A stretch of 58,006 nt of DNA from Chloroflexota bacterium (GCA_023512725.1 JAILZB010000003.1:1-58006); one strand, 5' to 3'. Shown: positions 18,400 through 25,015, counted from the stretch's first letter. Notes: generated from the sequence alone by a model not told the origin. Program-made: numbers and translations.

Positions 18400-19262
18400 G
18401 CCGCGGTGGCGAGTGTCGTCGAGGGCACCCCAGCCGGCCAGCCCAGGTAGGCAGCGGCAGCTTCTCCCAGCACCAGCTGGCGCTCGCGCTCGTTCGCGAA
18501 AGGCAGCGCCTGGCGGAACAGATCGACTTCCTGGCGGTAGGTCGCGCGCCCACGGGCACGCTGCTGGGTGTGGTCCGTCCCGAAGAAGCAGCGCTCGGCG
18601 CCAAACGTTGCCACCACCCGCATGACCAGCGCGTGGACGTCGGGGAAGGGATAGCCCAGCCGCGAGCGGGAGGGGAGGGTCGAGAGCTTGACAGCGACGT
18701 TCGGATAGCGAGCCAGGGCGAGCAGGCCCGGCAGGTCGGGGTGCTCAGCGCTGACGTCGATCGGGGGCAGGCCAAGATGGTCGATGACCAGCTTGAGGTG
18801 CGGGAACCGCTCGAGCACGGCCGCGGCGACGGCGATATCTCCGGCGAGGAAGACTGCCACCGGTGTCTGGGTACGCTCGCAGGCGGCCCAGAACCGGTCG
18901 GCTGCACGCTCGTGCGGCCAGCGCGCCCGCTCGGCGGGGTGGAGATGGGTGCGGATGCCCAGCATTCCGGGCTGCTGGCGCCAGCGCACGACCTGCTCCT
19001 CGATCTCCTCAGCCAGGACGTCGATCAACCCCATGACGGCGAAGCGGTCCGGGTAGGCTGCCGCGCACTCCAGGGCGAAGCGGTTGTCCGTCCCCATGAT
19101 CCCAGGCGGGACGATAATGGCCCGGTCGACACCCGATTCGTCCATCAGGGGCAGGAACTCCTGCGGCCCGAACGGGGTGGGCAGGCTTGGCCGACGGTCC
19201 GGGCGCCAGGGGCGGTCCGGGCGTTCTGCCTCCCAGAGGTGGATCTGGGTGTCGAGGATCAT
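18396..19262 (-). CDS. Amidohydrolase_2 family protein (COG3618, lactonase-like)
   Basis: Motifs ILDTQIHLW, GIR, IDHLG, VKLS and FGTD. Confidence 0.88.
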   Translation of the reverse strand: MILDTQIHLWEAERPDRPWRPDRRPSLPTPFGPQEFLPLMDESGVDRAIIVPPGIMGTDNRFALECAAAYPDRFAVMGLIDVLAEEIEEQVVRWRQQPGMLGIRTHLHPAERARWPHERAADRFWAACERTQTPVAVFLAGDIAVAAAVLERFPHLKLVIDHLGLPPIDVSAEHPDLPGLLALARYPNVAVKLSTLPSRSRLGYPFPDVHALVMRVVATFGAERCFFGTDHTQQRARGRATYRQEVDLFRQALPFANERERQLVLGEAAAAYLGWPAGVPSTTLATAA

Positions 19263-19344
19263 GCGCTTCCCTCTGCCCAGCCTGGCCGGGCGACGGTGCT
19301 ATCATAGGCCCACTGGCCCGCTGGTGGGCGCGGTGGAGGTTGGT

Positions 19345-20940
19345 GTGACCCTCGAACAGTTTGGCCGGCGCCGCGCGGGTGGGGTGCTTTCCGCCCGCGA
19401 AGTCGAGCTGGCTGCCCGCAACGGGCGAACGCTCGTTCTTCCTGCTTCGACGCTGATCACTCCAGCAGCGCGTGACCGGGCCCGTGAACTCGGCGTGACG
19501 ATCCAACTTCAGCGCGAGGTTGCGCCGCTCGCTCCCCCCACGGCCGCGGTCACCACCCTGCCCGGCAGCTACGACCTGATCGAGCCGCTGGCGGCCTTCG
19601 TGCTGGCCGCGGCTTCCAACGAGCTCCCCCCCGGGGTGATCGAGACGACCAAAGTGCTCCTGCTCGATTCGATCGCCGTCGGCTACGCGGGTACCCTCGC
19701 TGAGGGCGTGCGTGCGGTCATCGCCGGGCTCTCGGCCCGCCGCCAGGCGGAACGCGGCCACGTGATCGGCCAGCGCCAGAAGCTGCCTCCCCCGGAAGCA
19801 GCGCTCTGCAACGGTGCCCTCATCCACTCACTCGAATTTGACTCCGCCTTCGACGAGGGGTTGATCCATCCGATGGCAGGAGTTGTCCCGGCAGCACTGG
19901 CGCTGGCAGACGAACTCCGCCTCAGCCGCGGGCTGCCGCTGCTCACTGCCATCGCGGTGGGTGGCGAGATCGCCTGTCGGATCTCCTATGCTGCCACCGG
20001 TACGCCTCCCTTCTACCGCTGCGGTGCCATGGCCGCCTTTGGCGGGGTTGCCGCTGCGGGAGTCTTGCTCGACCTCGACCAGGATGCGCTCGTCCGTGCC
20101 TTCGGGATCGCCTACCACCAGGCCGTGATGCCCTGGCTCGCGCACGAAGAGGGGTCTCCCATTCACGGCGCGTTGCCTGGCTTCGGTGCTCACGCCGCGG
20201 TGGTCGCAGCACGGCTGGCGGCGGGTGGCGCCAGTGGCCCCCGCCGCGTCCTGGAAGGCGAGGCGGGCTACTTCCGTGCCTGCGAGGGTGGCGCCTGGGA
20301 CCGCGCGCGCGCGCTGGATGGCCTGGGGGCCTCCTGGCTCCTCCAGGCGATCAGCCTGAAACCGTACCCCTCCGGTCGGCTGACCCACGGGGCGATCGAC
20401 GGTGTCCTCCAGCTGCGGGCGGCCCACGGACTGCGACCAGAGCAGGTCCGCCAGATCACCATCGCGGCGAGCCAGATCATCGCCCACCGAACTGGCCGCA
20501 AGCCGGAGCCATCTGCCTCGCTGGTCAACCAGCGGCTGAGCGTGCCCTTCGTGGTGGCGCAGGCCCTGCGACGCGGTGCCGTTGGCCTCGACTGCTTCGG
20601 CCCGGCTGAGGTCGCCCATCCTGAGGTCCAGGCGCTGATGGAGCGGGTTCAGGTAGTGGCTGCGCCCGACATCCCCCCGACCGACCTGGCGCCGGTGCGG
20701 GTCTGCATCGAGACGGTCGAGGGGGCCCGGCTCGAAACGGAGGTCCGCCAGCTGCTGGGGAGCCCTGCCCGCCCCCTGAGCCGCGAGGAGCGGCTGGCCA
20801 AGCTCGCCCACTGCTGGCAGGTCTCTGGCCAGCCTGCCTACCGCCGCCCGGCCCGACTGGCTGAGACGATCGAGCACCTGGATGAGGCGAACTCACTGGC
20901 GGCCTTCTGGGCCGCCGTCGCCCCCCAGGCTACCCCGTGA
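19345..20940 (+). CDS. MmgE/PrpD family protein with an extra N-terminal domain
   Basis: Motifs LLDSIAVGYAG, AALCNG..IHSLEFD..HP, LEGEAG, KPYPSG..TH and GSP..PLS. SD GGAGG before GTG 19345. Confidence 0.9.
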   Translation: MTLEQFGRRRAGGVLSAREVELAARNGRTLVLPASTLITPAARDRARELGVTIQLQREVAPLAPPTAAVTTLPGSYDLIEPLAAFVLAAASNELPPGVIETTKVLLLDSIAVGYAGTLAEGVRAVIAGLSARRQAERGHVIGQRQKLPPPEAALCNGALIHSLEFDSAFDEGLIHPMAGVVPAALALADELRLSRGLPLLTAIAVGGEIACRISYAATGTPPFYRCGAMAAFGGVAAAGVLLDLDQDALVRAFGIAYHQAVMPWLAHEEGSPIHGALPGFGAHAAVVAARLAAGGASGPRRVLEGEAGYFRACEGGAWDRARALDGLGASWLLQAISLKPYPSGRLTHGAIDGVLQLRAAHGLRPEQVRQITIAASQIIAHRTGRKPEPSASLVNQRLSVPFVVAQALRRGAVGLDCFGPAEVAHPEVQALMERVQVVAAPDIPPTDLAPVRVCIETVEGARLETEVRQLLGSPARPLSREERLAKLAHCWQVSGQPAYRRPARLAETIEHLDEANSLAAFWAAVAPQATP

Positions 20941-22496
20941 GGAACCCTATGCCATCGCTGCCTGCTACCGCTCAGACCCTGGTGATGCCGATCCGCCGCA
21001 GCTGGGTGAGCTTCGACGCTGACGCCCCGCGTCTTGGCGAAAGCGATCGTCCCGCCCCGCCGTACCACATCTCGCTCACGTTCTACGACCCCCTCGCGCT
21101 GCCTCGGGTCGTCCAGGACCCGGATGGTCAGTGGCGCGCTGACTTCTCGCAGATGGTCGGCTTTCTGGCCGAGCGCTGGGAAGCGAATGCCGATGCGAGC
21201 GAGTGGACGGTCACCCTCCGTCGTGGTGTGCGTAGTCACTTCGGCAACGAGCTGACCGCCGACGATGTGAAGTGGAGTTGGGACCGCGCCTATGCTCTCC
21301 GCGGCGTTGGGCTCTGGCGCAGCCGAGTTGTCGGGGGGCTCCCCACGAGCGAGGGCGTGATCGCCGCCGACCGCTGGACGGTCGTCTTCCGCCTGCCCGC
21401 GCCGAAACCAAGCTGGCCGAAGTTCTGGGCCTTCGCGACCAACTGCATCTTCGATTCGCGCGAGGCACGTCGGCACACCCGCGAGAGCGACCCCTGGGCG
21501 CTGGAGTTCCTAAGCGCCGTCCCCTGCGGCTTCGGCCCCTTCGCGCTGGAGCGGCAGGACCAGCACGAGCTGCTCGGCCGCGCGCGGGATGACTACTGGG
21601 CCGGCCGCCCCGGACTGGAGCGCGTGTGCTATGCCAGCGTCGCGACCCGTAGCGAGGCGATCGAGCAGTTCCTCGGCGGCGCGTTCAACCTGATCGGCGG
21701 GCTCTTCCCACGCGAGTTCCGTCGCCTGGAACAGTTGCCCGGGGTGGTACCGGTGATCGCCAAGACCAACCAGGCCCAGATCGACCTCGACTGGAAGACG
21801 CCGCCGCTCGACCAGCAGCCCCTGCGCCAGGCGATCCTGATGGCGATCCCCTACGACCGGATCATCCGGGAGGTGTACGACGGCCTCGCCCGCCCGAGCC
21901 GGGGGCCGATCCTCGATATCGCCAGCGATTACGACCCCGACGCGTGGCCTTATCCCTACGACCCGGCGCGGGCGCGGGAGCTGGTGCGCGCTGCTGGCGC
22001 CGAAGGGGCCGAACTGGACTTTGCGGTTGGTGAGGATGAAGAGAGCCAGCAGATCGCCGCGATCGTCGTTGCGGCGCTGGCCGAGATCGGCCTGCGACTC
22101 CGGGTTATCCCTCAACGGAGCGTCCCGCCTGGCCAGCTGACCCCCCTCTGGTTAAACCCGGAGACGAGTCACGGCATCGCCGATCCGCACTACAACATCG
22201 CCCACGAGTACGACCCACCGCGGGGGATGCACGGCGGGCGCTACATCCGCGACCGCGCCATCGTTGAGCGGCTGCGTGCCATCAACGAGCATCCGGACCC
22301 GGCTGCGAAGTCGGCGGAATACCGCCGCCTGGCGCGCGACCTGGTCGAGCTGGCGCCAAAGGTGTTCCTCGCCAACCTGACCTTCCTGCTCTGCTACCGC
22401 GCTGAGCTCGACCCCTGGCTGACCTCGGGCCAGTTTGCCGCTTATCAGAACTTGCTCTGGGCCGCTGGTCGCTCGCTCCTGCCCGATACCCCCTAG
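20937..22496 (+). CDS. ABC-type substrate-binding protein, family 5; no signal peptide visible
   Basis: Signature LAERWE..D..EWTVTLRRGV..H.GNELTADDVKWSWDR, plus GFGPF, LRQAI and YDPARARELV. Confidence 0.88.
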   Translation: MRNPMPSLPATAQTLVMPIRRSWVSFDADAPRLGESDRPAPPYHISLTFYDPLALPRVVQDPDGQWRADFSQMVGFLAERWEANADASEWTVTLRRGVRSHFGNELTADDVKWSWDRAYALRGVGLWRSRVVGGLPTSEGVIAADRWTVVFRLPAPKPSWPKFWAFATNCIFDSREARRHTRESDPWALEFLSAVPCGFGPFALERQDQHELLGRARDDYWAGRPGLERVCYASVATRSEAIEQFLGGAFNLIGGLFPREFRRLEQLPGVVPVIAKTNQAQIDLDWKTPPLDQQPLRQAILMAIPYDRIIREVYDGLARPSRGPILDIASDYDPDAWPYPYDPARARELVRAAGAEGAELDFAVGEDEESQQIAAIVVAALAEIGLRLRVIPQRSVPPGQLTPLWLNPETSHGIADPHYNIAHEYDPPRGMHGGRYIRDRAIVERLRAINEHPDPAAKSAEYRRLARDLVELAPKVFLANLTFLLCYRAELDPWLTSGQFAAYQNLLWAAGRSLLPDTP

Positions 22497-24478
22497 CGCT
22501 CGGGCCGACGCGCCGTGAGGTACTCCTCCAACGTCTGGCCCCGGGCGGCGATATCGTAGGCAAGCTCGCCGACGTAGCGGTACTGCCAGGGAGCGGCCTT
22601 GAATCCGAGCACCGGTTCTTTTCCGGGCGGAGCGCTCTGGATGAAGCCGTAGCGGGCCGCCTGCGTCTTCAGCCAGCGCCCCTCGGGGCTCTCGTCGAAG
22701 CGGTCATCCAGGCTGTAGCCTTGGCTGGCACTGACAAAATCGACCACTGTCCCCAACTGGTGCTCATCATAGCCAGGCTTCGGGGTCAGCTGCTCGGCCC
22801 GGCTCTGGCCATGCTGAGCGATGAGTGCGCTGAAGAGTGCGCGTTGCTCAGCGGGCGAGCGGTAGGCACCGGCCACGGCCGGCTCAAGCCCGGCGGCCCG
22901 CATCGCCTCGATCAAGCGACGGAAGGCATCCAGCATCGTCCGGCGGATTCGCAGCTCGGGCTTGAGGGTCTTGACCACCCCCTCCAGGGGGACGAGGTCG
23001 GCAGGCTGGTAGCTTTCCGGCACGCCCCGCTGGCGCGAGACGAGGTAGAGCAGCGAATTCGGGTCCGACTGGGGCGGCAGTGGCGGCGCGAGTGTCGGCG
23101 TGACCACCGCCCCTGAGCGCCCACTCGTGGTCACTCCGCCGCTGGCAGTAGGCACGGCCGTCGGGCTCAGGGTGGGCCGTGGGCCGGTGAGTGTGACCGT
23201 CGCCGTGGGGAGCGGCGTCAGGACGGAGGTGACGGTCAGGCCGGCGCTGGTGCTGATCACCGCCGGCGGTGGAAGTGCAGCGATGACCGGGGCCGCCGAC
23301 CGGCTGGGTGTGGGCGCGGCCGGCAGTGCCGGCGGCGGAGGGGGGAGAAAGTGGCCCACCGCTGCCGTGCGCACAGCGGCGTGGCCCGCCCCGACCAGGG
23401 TCGCGGTGGCCAGGAGAGTCAGGGCAAGCGCGGTCAGGGCGATACCGACGCGAGGGAGCCCACCGAGCGACCAGCAGCGAGCGCGGGACGTGGCCTCACC
23501 GGTCGGCGGTGCAGCGGGCGATGCCGCGGCCTGGTCGTCCTGCTCGTTCGGGTCCGAGGCTGGTGCAGTGGGAACCGTGGGAACGCTCGCTGGAATCCTT
23601 GCTGTAGCTGGGTCAGCCAGGGCGCTGGCAGTCGCGGCGGCCAGGGCAGGCGGCCCACTCCCAAGGGGTTGCCGCTGTTCCGCCAGGGCGGCTGCTCCCC
23701 CTAGGAAGGGAAGCAGCGCCTGGGCGACCTCAGCCAGGGTGGAATACCGCTCCTCCGGCCGCGGGGCGAGCAGGCGCAGGGCGATCTGGTCGAGGGCGCG
23801 GGGAACCTCCGGCCGCACCTGCGAGGGTGGCGGAGGCAGCTGCTGGCGCAGGGAGGCAGTTTCCCCGACCGAAGCGCCCCGGCAGGGGATGACCCCGCTG
23901 AGCAACTGGTAGAGCAGGACTCCGAGGGCGTAGCAATCGGCCGCTGCATCCCAAAGACCGCTTCGGGCGGCCTCGGGCGAGAGGTACGGCCAGGCGGGAC
24001 CAGCACGAGGGTCACACGCGAGCAGGGCGGCGAGGGCCACATCCATCACGCCGAGGCGGTTGCCCTCCCGGAGCGCCAGGTTGGCTGGGCGGAGGTCGCC
24101 GTGGACGAGGCCGCGCGCGTGGGCCTCCTGGAGCGCCTCCGCAAGCTGCCAAACCAACCACACCCGGGCCGAAAGGTCGAGCGCGAGGGGGTTGGCCTGG
24201 ACCAACGGCACTCCCGGCTCCAGGGTAGTCACGAGAAACGGCTGCCCACCTTCGACCCCCCAGTCCAGGGCGGGGTGAAGCGCTGGGTGACGGAGGGTCG
24301 CCAGCACCGGCGCGATCGCCTCCAGGCGTAGCCCGAGGTCGGCCGCGGCCGAGCGTGGCAGCAGCCGCACCGCCACTGGCAATTGGTCGCCGGCCAGGAC
24401 GGCCCGGTAGACCTCGCCGCTGGCGGAGCTGCCCAGCCGCTCCCGGAGGAGGTAGCGTCCAAAGCGCTGGTCGGGCAC
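22493..24478 (-). CDS. Ser/Thr kinase-like domain, TM helix, Pro/Thr linker and VanY/LdcB (M15B) D,D-carboxypeptidase-like domain; both domains degenerate
   Basis: Kinase part: HGDLRPAN, YLSPE, ADCYALGVLLY. Peptidase part: YRS..EQ, PG.DEHQLG..VD, RYGF, PW.YRYVG. GTG start after AAGGAG. Confidence 0.88.
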   Translation of the reverse strand: MPDQRFGRYLLRERLGSSASGEVYRAVLAGDQLPVAVRLLPRSAAADLGLRLEAIAPVLATLRHPALHPALDWGVEGGQPFLVTTLEPGVPLVQANPLALDLSARVWLVWQLAEALQEAHARGLVHGDLRPANLALREGNRLGVMDVALAALLACDPRAGPAWPYLSPEAARSGLWDAAADCYALGVLLYQLLSGVIPCRGASVGETASLRQQLPPPPSQVRPEVPRALDQIALRLLAPRPEERYSTLAEVAQALLPFLGGAAALAEQRQPLGSGPPALAAATASALADPATARIPASVPTVPTAPASDPNEQDDQAAASPAAPPTGEATSRARCWSLGGLPRVGIALTALALTLLATATLVGAGHAAVRTAAVGHFLPPPPPALPAAPTPSRSAAPVIAALPPPAVISTSAGLTVTSVLTPLPTATVTLTGPRPTLSPTAVPTASGGVTTSGRSGAVVTPTLAPPLPPQSDPNSLLYLVSRQRGVPESYQPADLVPLEGVVKTLKPELRIRRTMLDAFRRLIEAMRAAGLEPAVAGAYRSPAEQRALFSALIAQHGQSRAEQLTPKPGYDEHQLGTVVDFVSASQGYSLDDRFDESPEGRWLKTQAARYGFIQSAPPGKEPVLGFKAAPWQYRYVGELAYDIAARGQTLEEYLTARRPER

Positions 24479-24691
24479 GCGTGGCTCCTTCCCTTGCAAG
24501 CAGCCACACTATGCCAACCGCTCCGCCCGCTCGCAAGCAGCAAGCGACAGCCGTGCTGGAAACCACTGGGTGCGGGGGACGCTTGGCTGGGCGAGCGCGT
24601 TTTCCGGTATGGTGGATCGGGCATGCGGAATGCTGCTGCGCGGTTCGGACTGGCCCCCCGGGCTGGTGAACCGATCTCAGGAGGAGGAACG

Positions 24692-25015
24692 ATGTACGGT
24701 GTCCTGGTGCAATTTCCGGCCGAAGCCCCGCTGAGCACCGAGCAGTGTCGCCAGCGCTGGGAGGCGATTGCGCCCATGTTCGAGAAGGAACCTGGCTTCG
24801 TCCACAAGGCGTTCCTGCGCAGCCCGGATGGCATCACCTGGGGCGGGTTCTACCTCTGGCAGAGCCGTGAGGCGGCAGAGGCGTATTACACCCCCGAATG
24901 GCGCCAGCGCATGAGCGAGCGCTACGGGGCGGAGCCGAGCGTCACGTTCTTTGAGGTCCCCGCAGTAGCGGGTGCAAGTGTCCGCCCTGGACTGGAGGTT
25001 GCGCCTAGCCGATAG
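24692..25015 (+). CDS. YdhR-like monooxygenase (dimeric alpha-beta barrel)
   Basis: PGFVHKAFL...GGFYLWQSREAAEAYY; strong SD GGAGGAGG. Confidence 0.85.
   Translation: MYGVLVQFPAEAPLSTEQCRQRWEAIAPMFEKEPGFVHKAFLRSPDGITWGGFYLWQSREAAEAYYTPEWRQRMSERYGAEPSVTFFEVPAVAGASVRPGLEVAPSR

Follow-up and report, generated by a model that had tools for sequence, protein, structure and literature searches.

PASTA kinases such as PknB, StkP and PrkC combine a cytoplasmic Hanks-type fold, one transmembrane helix and, outside the cell, a domain with a link to peptidoglycan. The LdcB/DacB and VanY peptidases (MEROPS M15B, LAS fold; structures 4ox3, 4mph and 4ox5) are extracytoplasmic and membrane-anchored. We describe here a gene on the minus strand of a 58,006-nucleotide stretch of DNA from a Chloroflexota bacterium (GCA_023512725.1 JAILZB010000003.1:1-58006; the whole stretch is called the window below), whose predicted product joins a kinase-like domain to an LdcB-like domain across the membrane. 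A first-pass annotation, made from the sequence alone, had described a doubly degenerate kinase/VanY fusion. That observation is confirmed, every substitution that it listed being present, and we conclude from the sequence comparisons below that the predicted product is a real, conserved and doubly degenerate transmembrane protein, a novel combination of known parts.

The requirements for catalysis in the outer domain can be judged from SpLdcB. According to the available text of Hoyland et al. 2014 (PMC4087270), Arg120 and Glu204 flank the catalytic centre of this enzyme, and the S1/S1' and zinc site comprises Arg120, Ser151, Tyr191, Tyr201, Glu204 and His207. Arg120 forms a salt bridge to the carboxylate of the substrate. 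Glu204 is invariant, and the E204A variant is a much poorer enzyme with residual activity; the zinc ligands of LdcB enzymes are described there as universally conserved, and ethylenediaminetetraacetic acid (EDTA) abolishes activity. Inactive members of the wider LAS group exist as well. In the accessible parts of the literature on them, the LytM factors EnvC, NlpD and DipM are LAS domains that have lost their catalytic residues and serve as non-enzymatic envelope regulators of amidases and other autolysins. They differ from the fusion in being M23 and not M15B domains, in being periplasmic proteins of diderms and in having no kinase-like fusion.

On the kinase side, a pseudokinase is defined in sequence terms by the absence of at least one of the β3 Lys, the HRD Asp and the DFG Asp (PMC13519141, in the text available). 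The bacterial families covered by the accessible text of the review of O'Boyle et al. 2025 (PMC12599244) are ActPs1-3 including MviN, GLW, CP1, DYD and DLHK, together with EssB/YukC, and the words "carboxypeptidase", "VanY", "peptidase" and "Chloroflex" do not occur in this review. The fusion comes from the Chloroflexota and not, like these families, from Actinobacteria or Firmicutes. It resembles MviN and EssB/YukC as a membrane pseudokinase with an extracytoplasmic part, but lacks their MurJ or type VII secretion context. It resembles the DYD family, as that text describes it, in being membrane-associated, in having Arg for the β3 Lys and in lacking the canonical αC Glu; however, its motif is D-[VTAP]-A (DVA in the window protein) and not D-Y-D, the second Asp of which has been proposed to pair with the β3 Arg (PMC12599244). 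From the PASTA kinases, among which PknB is its best-matching solved relative, it differs by the absence of PASTA repeats, of the catalytic Lys, of the canonical αC Glu, of DFG and of an activation-loop Thr, and the same genome encodes two PASTA kinases besides. No published description of a kinase-like/M15B fusion was found in open-access text.

Architecture and catalytic motifs of the fusion protein

The open reading frame occupies positions 22493..24499 of the minus strand and encodes 668 residues when counted from a TTG at 24499, and residue numbers throughout refer to this frame. The likely start is the GTG listed in Table 1, which is also where the database copy P0001 begins (661 residues, 99% identical, first residues MPDQ). 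The good Shine-Dalgarno sequence and the intact frame of about 660 codons noted at first pass correspond to the AAGGAG ahead of this GTG and to the 661 residues that follow. The searches with hidden Markov models that had been recommended there place both domains above the curated Pfam cut-offs: Pkinase (PF00069) matches residues 18-254 with 58.4 bits (E 9.8e-16; cut-off 31.7 bits) and VanY (PF02557) residues 517-644 with 95.5 bits (E 2.9e-27; cut-off 25 bits). The NCBIfam equivalogs remain far under theirs (LD_carboxy_LdcB, 82.9 against 275 bits; PknB_PASTA_kin, 128 against 450 bits). Structure prediction, likewise recommended, gave confident AF2 models with the expected folds on both sides. 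The kinase domain (pLDDT 92.6) has the Hanks fold of PF00069, with PknB as its best Foldseek match (E 2e-18), and the outer domain (pLDDT 93.2) has the VanY/M15B fold, matching BaLdcB and BsLdcB with TM-scores of 0.81-0.90 (4mph/4ox3/4jid) at 33% identity. The transmembrane helix and Pro/Thr stalk annotated between the two domains were recovered by a Kyte-Doolittle scan and from the composition of the stalk. Since there is one hydrophobic segment and the stalk follows it, the predicted topology is that the kinase-like domain is cytoplasmic and the LdcB-like domain extracellular. Within the otherwise variable stalk, the motif PV[VI]AALPPP[AV]V (residues 404-416, nt 23252-23290, minus strand) is conserved: A408, L409, P410-P412 and V414 are invariant in the family alignment, and the PPP also occurs in the distant member P0129.

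The kinase motifs were read from a residue-by-residue alignment to PknB (3f61), and their conservation from a family alignment of eight rows (A1), namely the window protein, P0001 and six orthologues. The β3 Lys, K40 of PknB, is replaced by R45 in all eight rows (VAVR for VAVK) and by Thr in P0129, and its absence makes the domain a pseudokinase by the sequence definition. The canonical αC Glu position is I62 in the window protein and Phe, Leu or Val in the orthologues. An acidic residue nevertheless stands two residues ahead of it (E60 in the window protein, Asp in P0002, P0005 and P0129) and is acidic in every aligned row; the αC Glu, annotated as missing, is thus missing from its canonical position with this nuance. 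The catalytic loop reads HGDLRPAN where PknB has HRDVKPAN, and DFG has become DVA, or D[VTAP]A across the alignment. The HRD Asp, the catalytic-loop Asn and the DFG Asp (D135, N140 and D153) are all present in the window protein. D135 is kept in seven of the eight rows, P0003 having Gly (HGG), whereas P0129 retains none of the three. Degradation of the Gly loop is confined to the window organism, which has LGSSASGEV for the LGFGGMSEV of PknB and no GxGxxG, whereas the six orthologues read GAGxxGS with GxGxxG intact. Finally, the activation segment, DVALAALLACDPRAGPAWPYLSPE, is eight residues shorter than that of PknB and has no Thr, and its sole Ser sits in the SPE motif. The changes annotated as GSSASG, VAVR, HGD and DVA all hold against PknB, the first of them for the window organism alone, and the activation segment, described as short and free of Ser and Thr, is indeed short and Thr-free but has the one Ser.

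Invariant columns are about twice as frequent in the N-lobe as in the C-lobe (42/86 against 39/166), and this suggests an interaction or a nucleotide-linked role centred on the N-lobe. Nucleotide binding or weak kinase activity may persist, because the orthologues keep GxGxxG, Asn140 and Asp153, plus Asp135 in seven of eight rows; nucleotide binding has been considered for other β3-Arg families in the available text of the O'Boyle et al. review (PMC12599244). The term pseudokinase scaffold, used at first pass, therefore applies by the sequence definition, the β3 Lys being gone, but sits less easily with the Gly loop, Asn, DFG Asp and, in most rows, catalytic Asp that the orthologues keep. A separate observation concerns the invariant pair G37-D38 (nt 24386-24391, minus strand), which aligns with Leu33 of PknB, a residue that Asp replaces in the structure entries labelled "L33D". 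We take this mutation to disrupt the dimer that PknB forms back to back through its N-lobes, in which case dimers of the PknB kind would not be expected in the fusion family.

In the outer domain, motifs were assigned from an alignment to BsLdcB (4ox3) with the zinc-ligand numbering found in the available text of Hoyland et al. 2014 (PMC4087270), and the remaining SpLdcB equivalences from a second alignment, through P0123 to SpLdcB (4ox5). By these alignments R547, L559, D578, H580, D587, A623, F633, A636, W638 and Q639 of the window protein correspond to Arg120, Tyr132, Ser151, His153, Asp160, Tyr191, Tyr201, Glu204, Trp206 and His207 of SpLdcB, respectively. An equivalence of Glu107 with residue 534 was dropped, as the alignment begins beyond Glu107. 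The YRS, xEHQxG...D and PW.YRY motifs of the LdcB and VanY enzymes are recognisable in the fusion. Unlike in those enzymes, however, Glu204 has become Ala, His207 Gln and Ser151 Asp, the tyrosines 191, 201 and 132 are replaced, and the domain is joined to a cytoplasmic kinase-like one. The first-pass annotation had reported SxH changed to DxH and, at 22583-22594, E-P-W-H changed to A-P-W-Q. Both are correct, the first as DEH against the SEH of BsLdcB and the second, exact in its coordinates, as residues 636-639. Of the zinc triad (H153, D160 and H207 in SpLdcB), H580 and D587 are present and Q639 replaces the third ligand.

The same positions were followed through the family. The catalytic Glu, invariant in active LdcB, is Ala, Gln or Arg in nine of nine members, and position 639 is Gln in the eight rows and His in P0129. 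In P0006 and P0007 Arg takes the place of H580, in P0129 Tyr does so, and P0007 also has Ala for D587. Position 623 varies between A, Q, Y and H and position 633 between F, V and L. The equivalent of Arg120 is present in the window protein, yet it is Leu in five of the eight rows. Five positions are invariant in the eight fusion rows and unlike at least five of six stand-alone rows, and three of them are cleft positions of SpLdcB that have been switched and then fixed: 559 (Tyr132), 578 (Ser151) and 639 (His207). Moreover, the 547/636 pairs are R/A, R/Q, L/R (the five Leu rows), R/A and, in P0129, R/Q, so that exactly one Arg is kept in all nine members. Because of these fixed positions and this single Arg, the cleft would appear remodelled rather than merely eroded, which hints at a remodelled anion-binding pocket. 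The canonical LdcB mode of holding a D-Ala-ended peptide is unlikely, since the S1/S1' and zinc-site residues are replaced or variable in the family. The first-pass statement that the M15B domain binds D-Ala-ended stem peptides does not stand as worded, a remodelled pocket being possible in its place. Among stand-alone VanY-family proteins, P0122 (367 residues) has EPWQ, with the Glu kept and Gln as third ligand, and SEHH for SEHQ; the change from His to Gln therefore occurs outside the fusion family too.

Conservation, distribution and ancestry

Homologues were sought by a word-seeded search of 5.8 billion clusters. Among the best 120 of its 255 matches, seven proteins carried both Pfam labels, P0001 and the six orthologues, the latter at 47-50% identity. 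When 1.84 billion representatives were scanned in full with HMMER, a single further and more distant member emerged, P0129 (35% identity). P0129 was the only one of the 147 proteins among the other top matches (P0126-P0272) to have a VanY-like domain, and Pfam on 21 of these agrees, all 21 apart from P0129 being tandem kinases. No fusion with catalytically intact domains was found in these protein-library searches. Across the class, the profile of the family alignment matched at full length in 4 of 401 genomes sampled, which are the window genome and all three other members of its genus; no such match was found in the remaining 397, the three best candidates of each genome being scored. The fusion is therefore very rare, occurring in one genus plus a handful of clusters in large protein libraries. 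A further word-based search, for short proteins akin to the VanY domain, returned three and missed the intact LdcB of the genus itself, so that it is no measure of rarity. The sources of the orthologues are labelled "Dehalococcoidia bacterium", and the runs whose contigs were compared with the gene are labelled hot-springs metagenomes.

Within this small family the substitutions are conserved. R45, H133, G134, N140, D153, A155 and Q639 are invariant in all eight rows; close orthologues that keep VAxK, DFG or EPWH, which the first-pass annotation would have read as a sign of lineage-specific decay or sequence error, are not among them. None of the four genomes of the genus has an interrupted frame, and identity between them is 64-77% in the VanY domain and 54-66% in the kinase domain, against 35-50% in the stalk and 19-33% in the juxtamembrane segment. 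Between two of the congeners (G003 and G047) the outer domain is 68% identical and the intact stand-alone LdcB 72%. Judged by these identities, the peptidase-like domain has changed at the same slow pace as the intact LdcB paralogue in this genus. The ratio of non-synonymous to synonymous change (dN/dS) by the Nei-Gojobori method (NG86) ranges over 0.07-0.20 in the VanY domain and 0.18-0.45 in the kinase domain, and the intact LdcB gives 0.15; these ratios are rough because dS is at least 1 and saturated. Sequence from other samples agrees with these patterns. A 14-kb contig of run X1, from a near-identical strain, differs from the window gene at 13 sites, with six synonymous and one non-synonymous change in the folded domains and two synonymous and four non-synonymous in the juxtamembrane segment. 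Runs X2-X4, which belong to another study, supplied short contigs in which the Gly loop, R45, HGD, DVA, H580 and APWQ are identical to those of the window. Altogether, comparison of these sequences indicates that the gene is intact and conserved, that both domains are under purifying selection and that the substitutions are neither decay nor error. The earlier argument that an intact frame speaks against simple decay is borne out by orthologues, by dN/dS and by independent contigs, and the proposed check, a dN/dS below 1, gave that result in both domains.

The distant member P0129 has degenerated differently. Its kinase domain has no Gly loop, Thr for the β3 Lys, HAA for HRD, no catalytic-loop Asn and NPG for DFG; its peptidase domain has SEY for SEH and QPWH for EPWH; the architecture is kept. 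This pattern would be that expected after an old loss of catalysis, because the Glu is missing in nine of nine members and the zinc ligands fail at positions that differ between branches. In a tree of the VanY domain, the nine fusion rows lie on one side of a branch supported at 93/95, with P0129 basal, which argues for a single origin of the fused VanY-type domain.

Each of the three congeners has a second VanY-family gene. In G047 and G003 it encodes a stand-alone, membrane-anchored LdcB that has a Pro/Thr stalk, keeps the YRS, SEH..D and EPWH motifs unaltered and is 40-50% identical to the pseudo-domains. These intact copies are the closest intact relatives found in the small set compared, the outer domain may have originated from such an enzyme, and the tree places them beside the fusion clade with weak support (65/40). 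No second VanY-family gene was found in the window assembly, where the one match is the fusion, although this negative is weak, the assembly (4.08 Mb in 461 contigs) being 90.7% complete. In the third congener (G073; 10 contigs, 80% complete), the intact LdcB and SBP_bac_5 genes both appear split by frame shifts (L038/L040 and L030). Loss of LdcB in this genome was considered and rejected; since the neighbouring SBP_bac_5 gene is split too, assembly indel errors are probable.

Proposed function and its alternatives

The reading that we prefer, and in which we place about even confidence, is that of a conserved single-pass membrane adaptor or receptor made from two former enzymes, which would bind and relay without catalysis, its folds being modelled and its functions inferred. 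The outer LdcB-type fold, held on its Pro/Thr stalk, should not cleave peptidoglycan stem peptides, because it has lost its catalytic Glu along with one or more zinc ligands. It would instead bind a carboxylate-bearing ligand derived from the cell wall and leave it uncleaved, a peptidoglycan peptide being the likeliest. Efficient phosphotransfer is not expected of the inner fold, because it lacks the β3 Lys, the canonical αC Glu and the Phe-Gly of DFG and has a short, Thr-less activation segment; it would probably work by protein contact, possibly as a nucleotide-bound switch. We speculate that its likely targets would be in the Ser/Thr network of the same genome, which includes eight canonical Hanks kinases, two of them with PASTA repeats, and 12 FHA matches. 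The first-pass reading, a non-catalytic stem-peptide receptor signalling through a pseudokinase scaffold, survives in that the protein is intact, conserved and predicted to be non-catalytic on both sides, but not in its canonical binding of D-Ala.

Several points weigh against such an adaptor or receptor. The residues by which LdcB holds D-Ala and zinc are variable or lost, as seen at 623 and 633, at 547 with its Leu in five of eight rows and at H580 with Arg in two. The exchange of Arg between 547 and 636 may represent a single evolutionary event and is then weak as covariation, because the tree does not separate the eight close members. The gene has no operon partners in four of four genomes, nor does its context tie it to the cell wall. 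The family has very few members, and its source organisms are uncultured. Among the cytoplasmic Thr residues outside the kinase fold, none is invariant in the family alignment, so that a docking site of the phospho-Thr/FHA kind is not evident and a mechanism like that of MviN is not supported, despite the FHA matches in the genome. Last, every functional step, be it ligand, partner or output, is inferred.

A bolder version, which we regard as doubtful, would be a receptor dead on both sides, in which an Arg clamp, in a pocket without Glu and metal site, catches the free carboxylate of uncross-linked stem peptides and leaves them uncleaved, its occupancy is signalled through the membrane to a nucleotide-binding kinase fold that does not phosphorylate but tunes the PASTA/Hanks network, and the outer domain arose by duplication of LdcB. 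Were it true, it would provide the first M15B-based sensor domain together with an undescribed Chloroflexota pseudokinase family.

We give a similarly low probability to a role of the dead LdcB domain by protein contact, in which it would control a wall hydrolase or synthase or hold it in place, the pseudokinase serving as cytoplasmic input, for control from the inside out, or as anchor. Conservation, strong in the rest of the domain, is among its weakest at the residues of the former active site, which would fit a functional surface elsewhere, and the intact membrane-anchored paralogue of the congeners also speaks for this role, but the window genome has the fusion as its single VanY-family match, a weak objection at 90.7% completeness. 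The cleft positions that were switched and then fixed, and the one Arg kept between 547 and 636, would be unexpected if the cleft were irrelevant. We know of no M15B regulator of wall hydrolases, although no specific search was made for one. In a complex prediction, the pseudo-LdcB domain of G047 and the intact LdcB domain of the same genome (A6, A7) scored 0.00, which carries no weight either way. Inactive regulators of hydrolases are established for LAS-type domains (PMC8416486 and PMC10336132, in their accessible text), but LytM (M23) and LdcB (M15B) are different families.

Somewhat less probable still is that the kinase domain remains an atypical enzyme, with Arg45 and E60 in place of the Lys-Glu pair, and that the protein is a true receptor kinase with a dead peptidase as sensor. 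The orthologues speak for it by keeping GxGxxG, while Asn140 and Asp153 are present in every row and Asp135 in seven of eight, and HGD (non-RD) kinases are not known to need activation-loop phosphorylation. Yet Lys to Arg is the standard substitution for inactivating a kinase, the window protein lacks the middle Gly of its loop, P0003 has lost the catalytic Asp (HGG), and P0129 has kept the architecture with neither Gly loop, Lys, HRD Asp, Asn nor DFG Asp. A β3 Arg is found in DYD, ActPs2, EphB6 and KSR1, and of these EphB6 and KSR1 are reported to bind ATP or small molecules (PMC12599244, in the text available); on the other hand, DFG is DxA here, and the second Asp proposed for the DYD family is absent.

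It is very improbable that the outer domain is still a zinc carboxypeptidase with Gln639 as ligand and another residue as base. The EPWQ of the stand-alone P0122 and the residual activity of SpLdcB E204A (available text of PMC4087270) would allow it, but P0122 has kept its Glu, which all nine members have lost; H580 is Arg in two rows and Tyr in one, D587 is Ala in one, the Arg120 equivalent is Leu in five, and the zinc ligands of LdcB enzymes are described in that text as universally conserved, with EDTA abolishing activity. Least credible of all is that the substitutions represent recent decay toward gene loss or assembly errors: the middle Gly of the Gly loop is lost in the window protein alone, but the four genomes of the genus all have an unbroken frame, the same substitutions recur at 47-50% identity, dN/dS is well below 1, the folded domains show six synonymous changes to one non-synonymous within the species, and wherever contigs of the four runs (two studies) overlap these parts of the window, they agree with it.

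Genomic setting and significance

The other kinases of the window genome serve as controls for the motifs. Eight of ten other Hanks kinases have a canonical Gly loop, VAxK, αC Glu, HRD..N and DFG, and nine of ten have the β3 Lys. The two degenerate paralogues are G000:C430 (L046; 773 residues, LALYR, VHGGLEPAV, GGFG), which alone lacks the Lys, and G000:C42 (L008; HRN, DFS), which keeps it. By Pfam, PASTA repeats occur in two other kinase reading frames and not in the fusion protein. Peptidoglycan synthesis is encoded, with eight transpeptidase and seven Mur-ligase matches.

The four genomes of the genus share one gene order: DinG-like, DUF4190, ydhR-like on the opposite strand, fusion gene and convergent SBP_bac_5 (Table 1). 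The idea of an operon partner was rejected, as the ydhR-like gene on the opposite strand separates the DUF4190 gene from the fusion gene and the SBP_bac_5 gene is convergent. Because of this divergent and this convergent neighbour, the fusion gene looks monocistronic and its neighbours are uninformative on its role. A scan of positions 22300-24800 for promoter and terminator consensus sequences gave no site of either kind; the promoter consensus was that of sigma-70, which may not apply to Chloroflexota. The 19 runs listed for the gene include no RNA run, which has no bearing on expression.

Table 1. Positions, strands and characteristics of the fusion gene, of its domains and motifs, and of neighbouring genes in the window
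Feature	Positions	Strand	Remarks
Fusion gene, kinase-like and LdcB-like	22493..24478	-	661 residues from GTG at 24478, likely start
Shine-Dalgarno-like AAGGAG	24485..24490	-	6-nt spacer to GTG start; read directly
Cytoplasmic Hanks-type (PknB-like) kinase fold, residues 14-265	23705..24460	-	Pfam; PDB phmmer to PknB E 3e-26
Gly-rich loop GSSASG, residues 23-28	24416..24433	-	Middle Gly gone; orthologues GAGxxG
R45 replacing β3 Lys	24365..24367	-	VAVR against PknB VAVK; aligned to PknB K40
Catalytic loop HGDLRPAN, residues 133-140	24080..24103	-	PknB HRDVKPAN; HRD to HGD, loop Lys to Arg
DVA replacing DFG, residues 153-155	24035..24043	-	D153 and A155 invariant in family alignment; D[VTAP]A across it
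Single transmembrane helix, residues 351-371	23387..23449	-	Kyte-Doolittle scan; sole region with 19-residue mean of at least 1.6
Extracellular Pro/Thr/Ala-rich stalk, residues 373-475	23075..23383	-	22 Pro and 17 Thr in 103 residues
Extracellular LdcB/VanY (MEROPS M15B, LAS fold) domain, residues 476-665	22505..23074	-	Pfam; PDB 4ox3 E 5e-30; predicted non-catalytic
R547, equivalent of SpLdcB Arg120 (carboxylate clamp)	22859..22861	-	Leu in 5/8 family rows, which carry Arg636 instead
D578-E-H580...D587	22739..22768	-	SxH to DxH (DEH against SEH); first two zinc ligands kept in window protein
A636-P-W-Q639 replacing E-P-W-H	22583..22594	-	Catalytic Glu and third zinc ligand lost
SBP_bac_5, peptide-type ATP-binding cassette (ABC) solute-binding	20937-22496	+	Convergent, ends overlap by 4 bases; 73-81% identity in congeners
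PrpD/MmgE-family gene	19084-20940		Directly ahead of SBP_bac_5 gene
Hybrid histidine kinase, 1007 residues	15376-18399	+	PAS, HisKA, HATPase_c, receiver
ydhR-like (PF08803) small reading frame	24692-25015	+	Divergent to fusion gene; 78-82% identical in three congeners, same place
DUF4190 membrane protein, 148 residues	25005-25451	-	N-terminal CxxC...CxxC, zinc-ribbon-like; syntenic 4/4; overlaps DinG-like end by 7 bases
RNase_T-type exonuclease and DinG-like helicase (DEAD_2, Helicase_C_2) fusion, 961 residues	25445-28330	-	

The weight of the finding is limited by the size of the family, which is very small and confined to uncultured hot-spring Chloroflexota, and by a function that is so far putative. 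Within these bounds, the family is a further candidate to set beside the few bacterial pseudokinase families described so far, and it comes from a phylum that PMC12599244 does not mention. Work on pseudoenzymes has mostly dealt with single domains. In this protein, two enzyme folds that are unrelated to each other and separated by the membrane would both have turned non-catalytic and have been kept under purifying selection. If the outer domain reads the state of stem peptides, it would represent a second solution to wall sensing for kinase-like receptors besides PASTA, and a natural case of a wall-trimming enzyme turned into a binding module.

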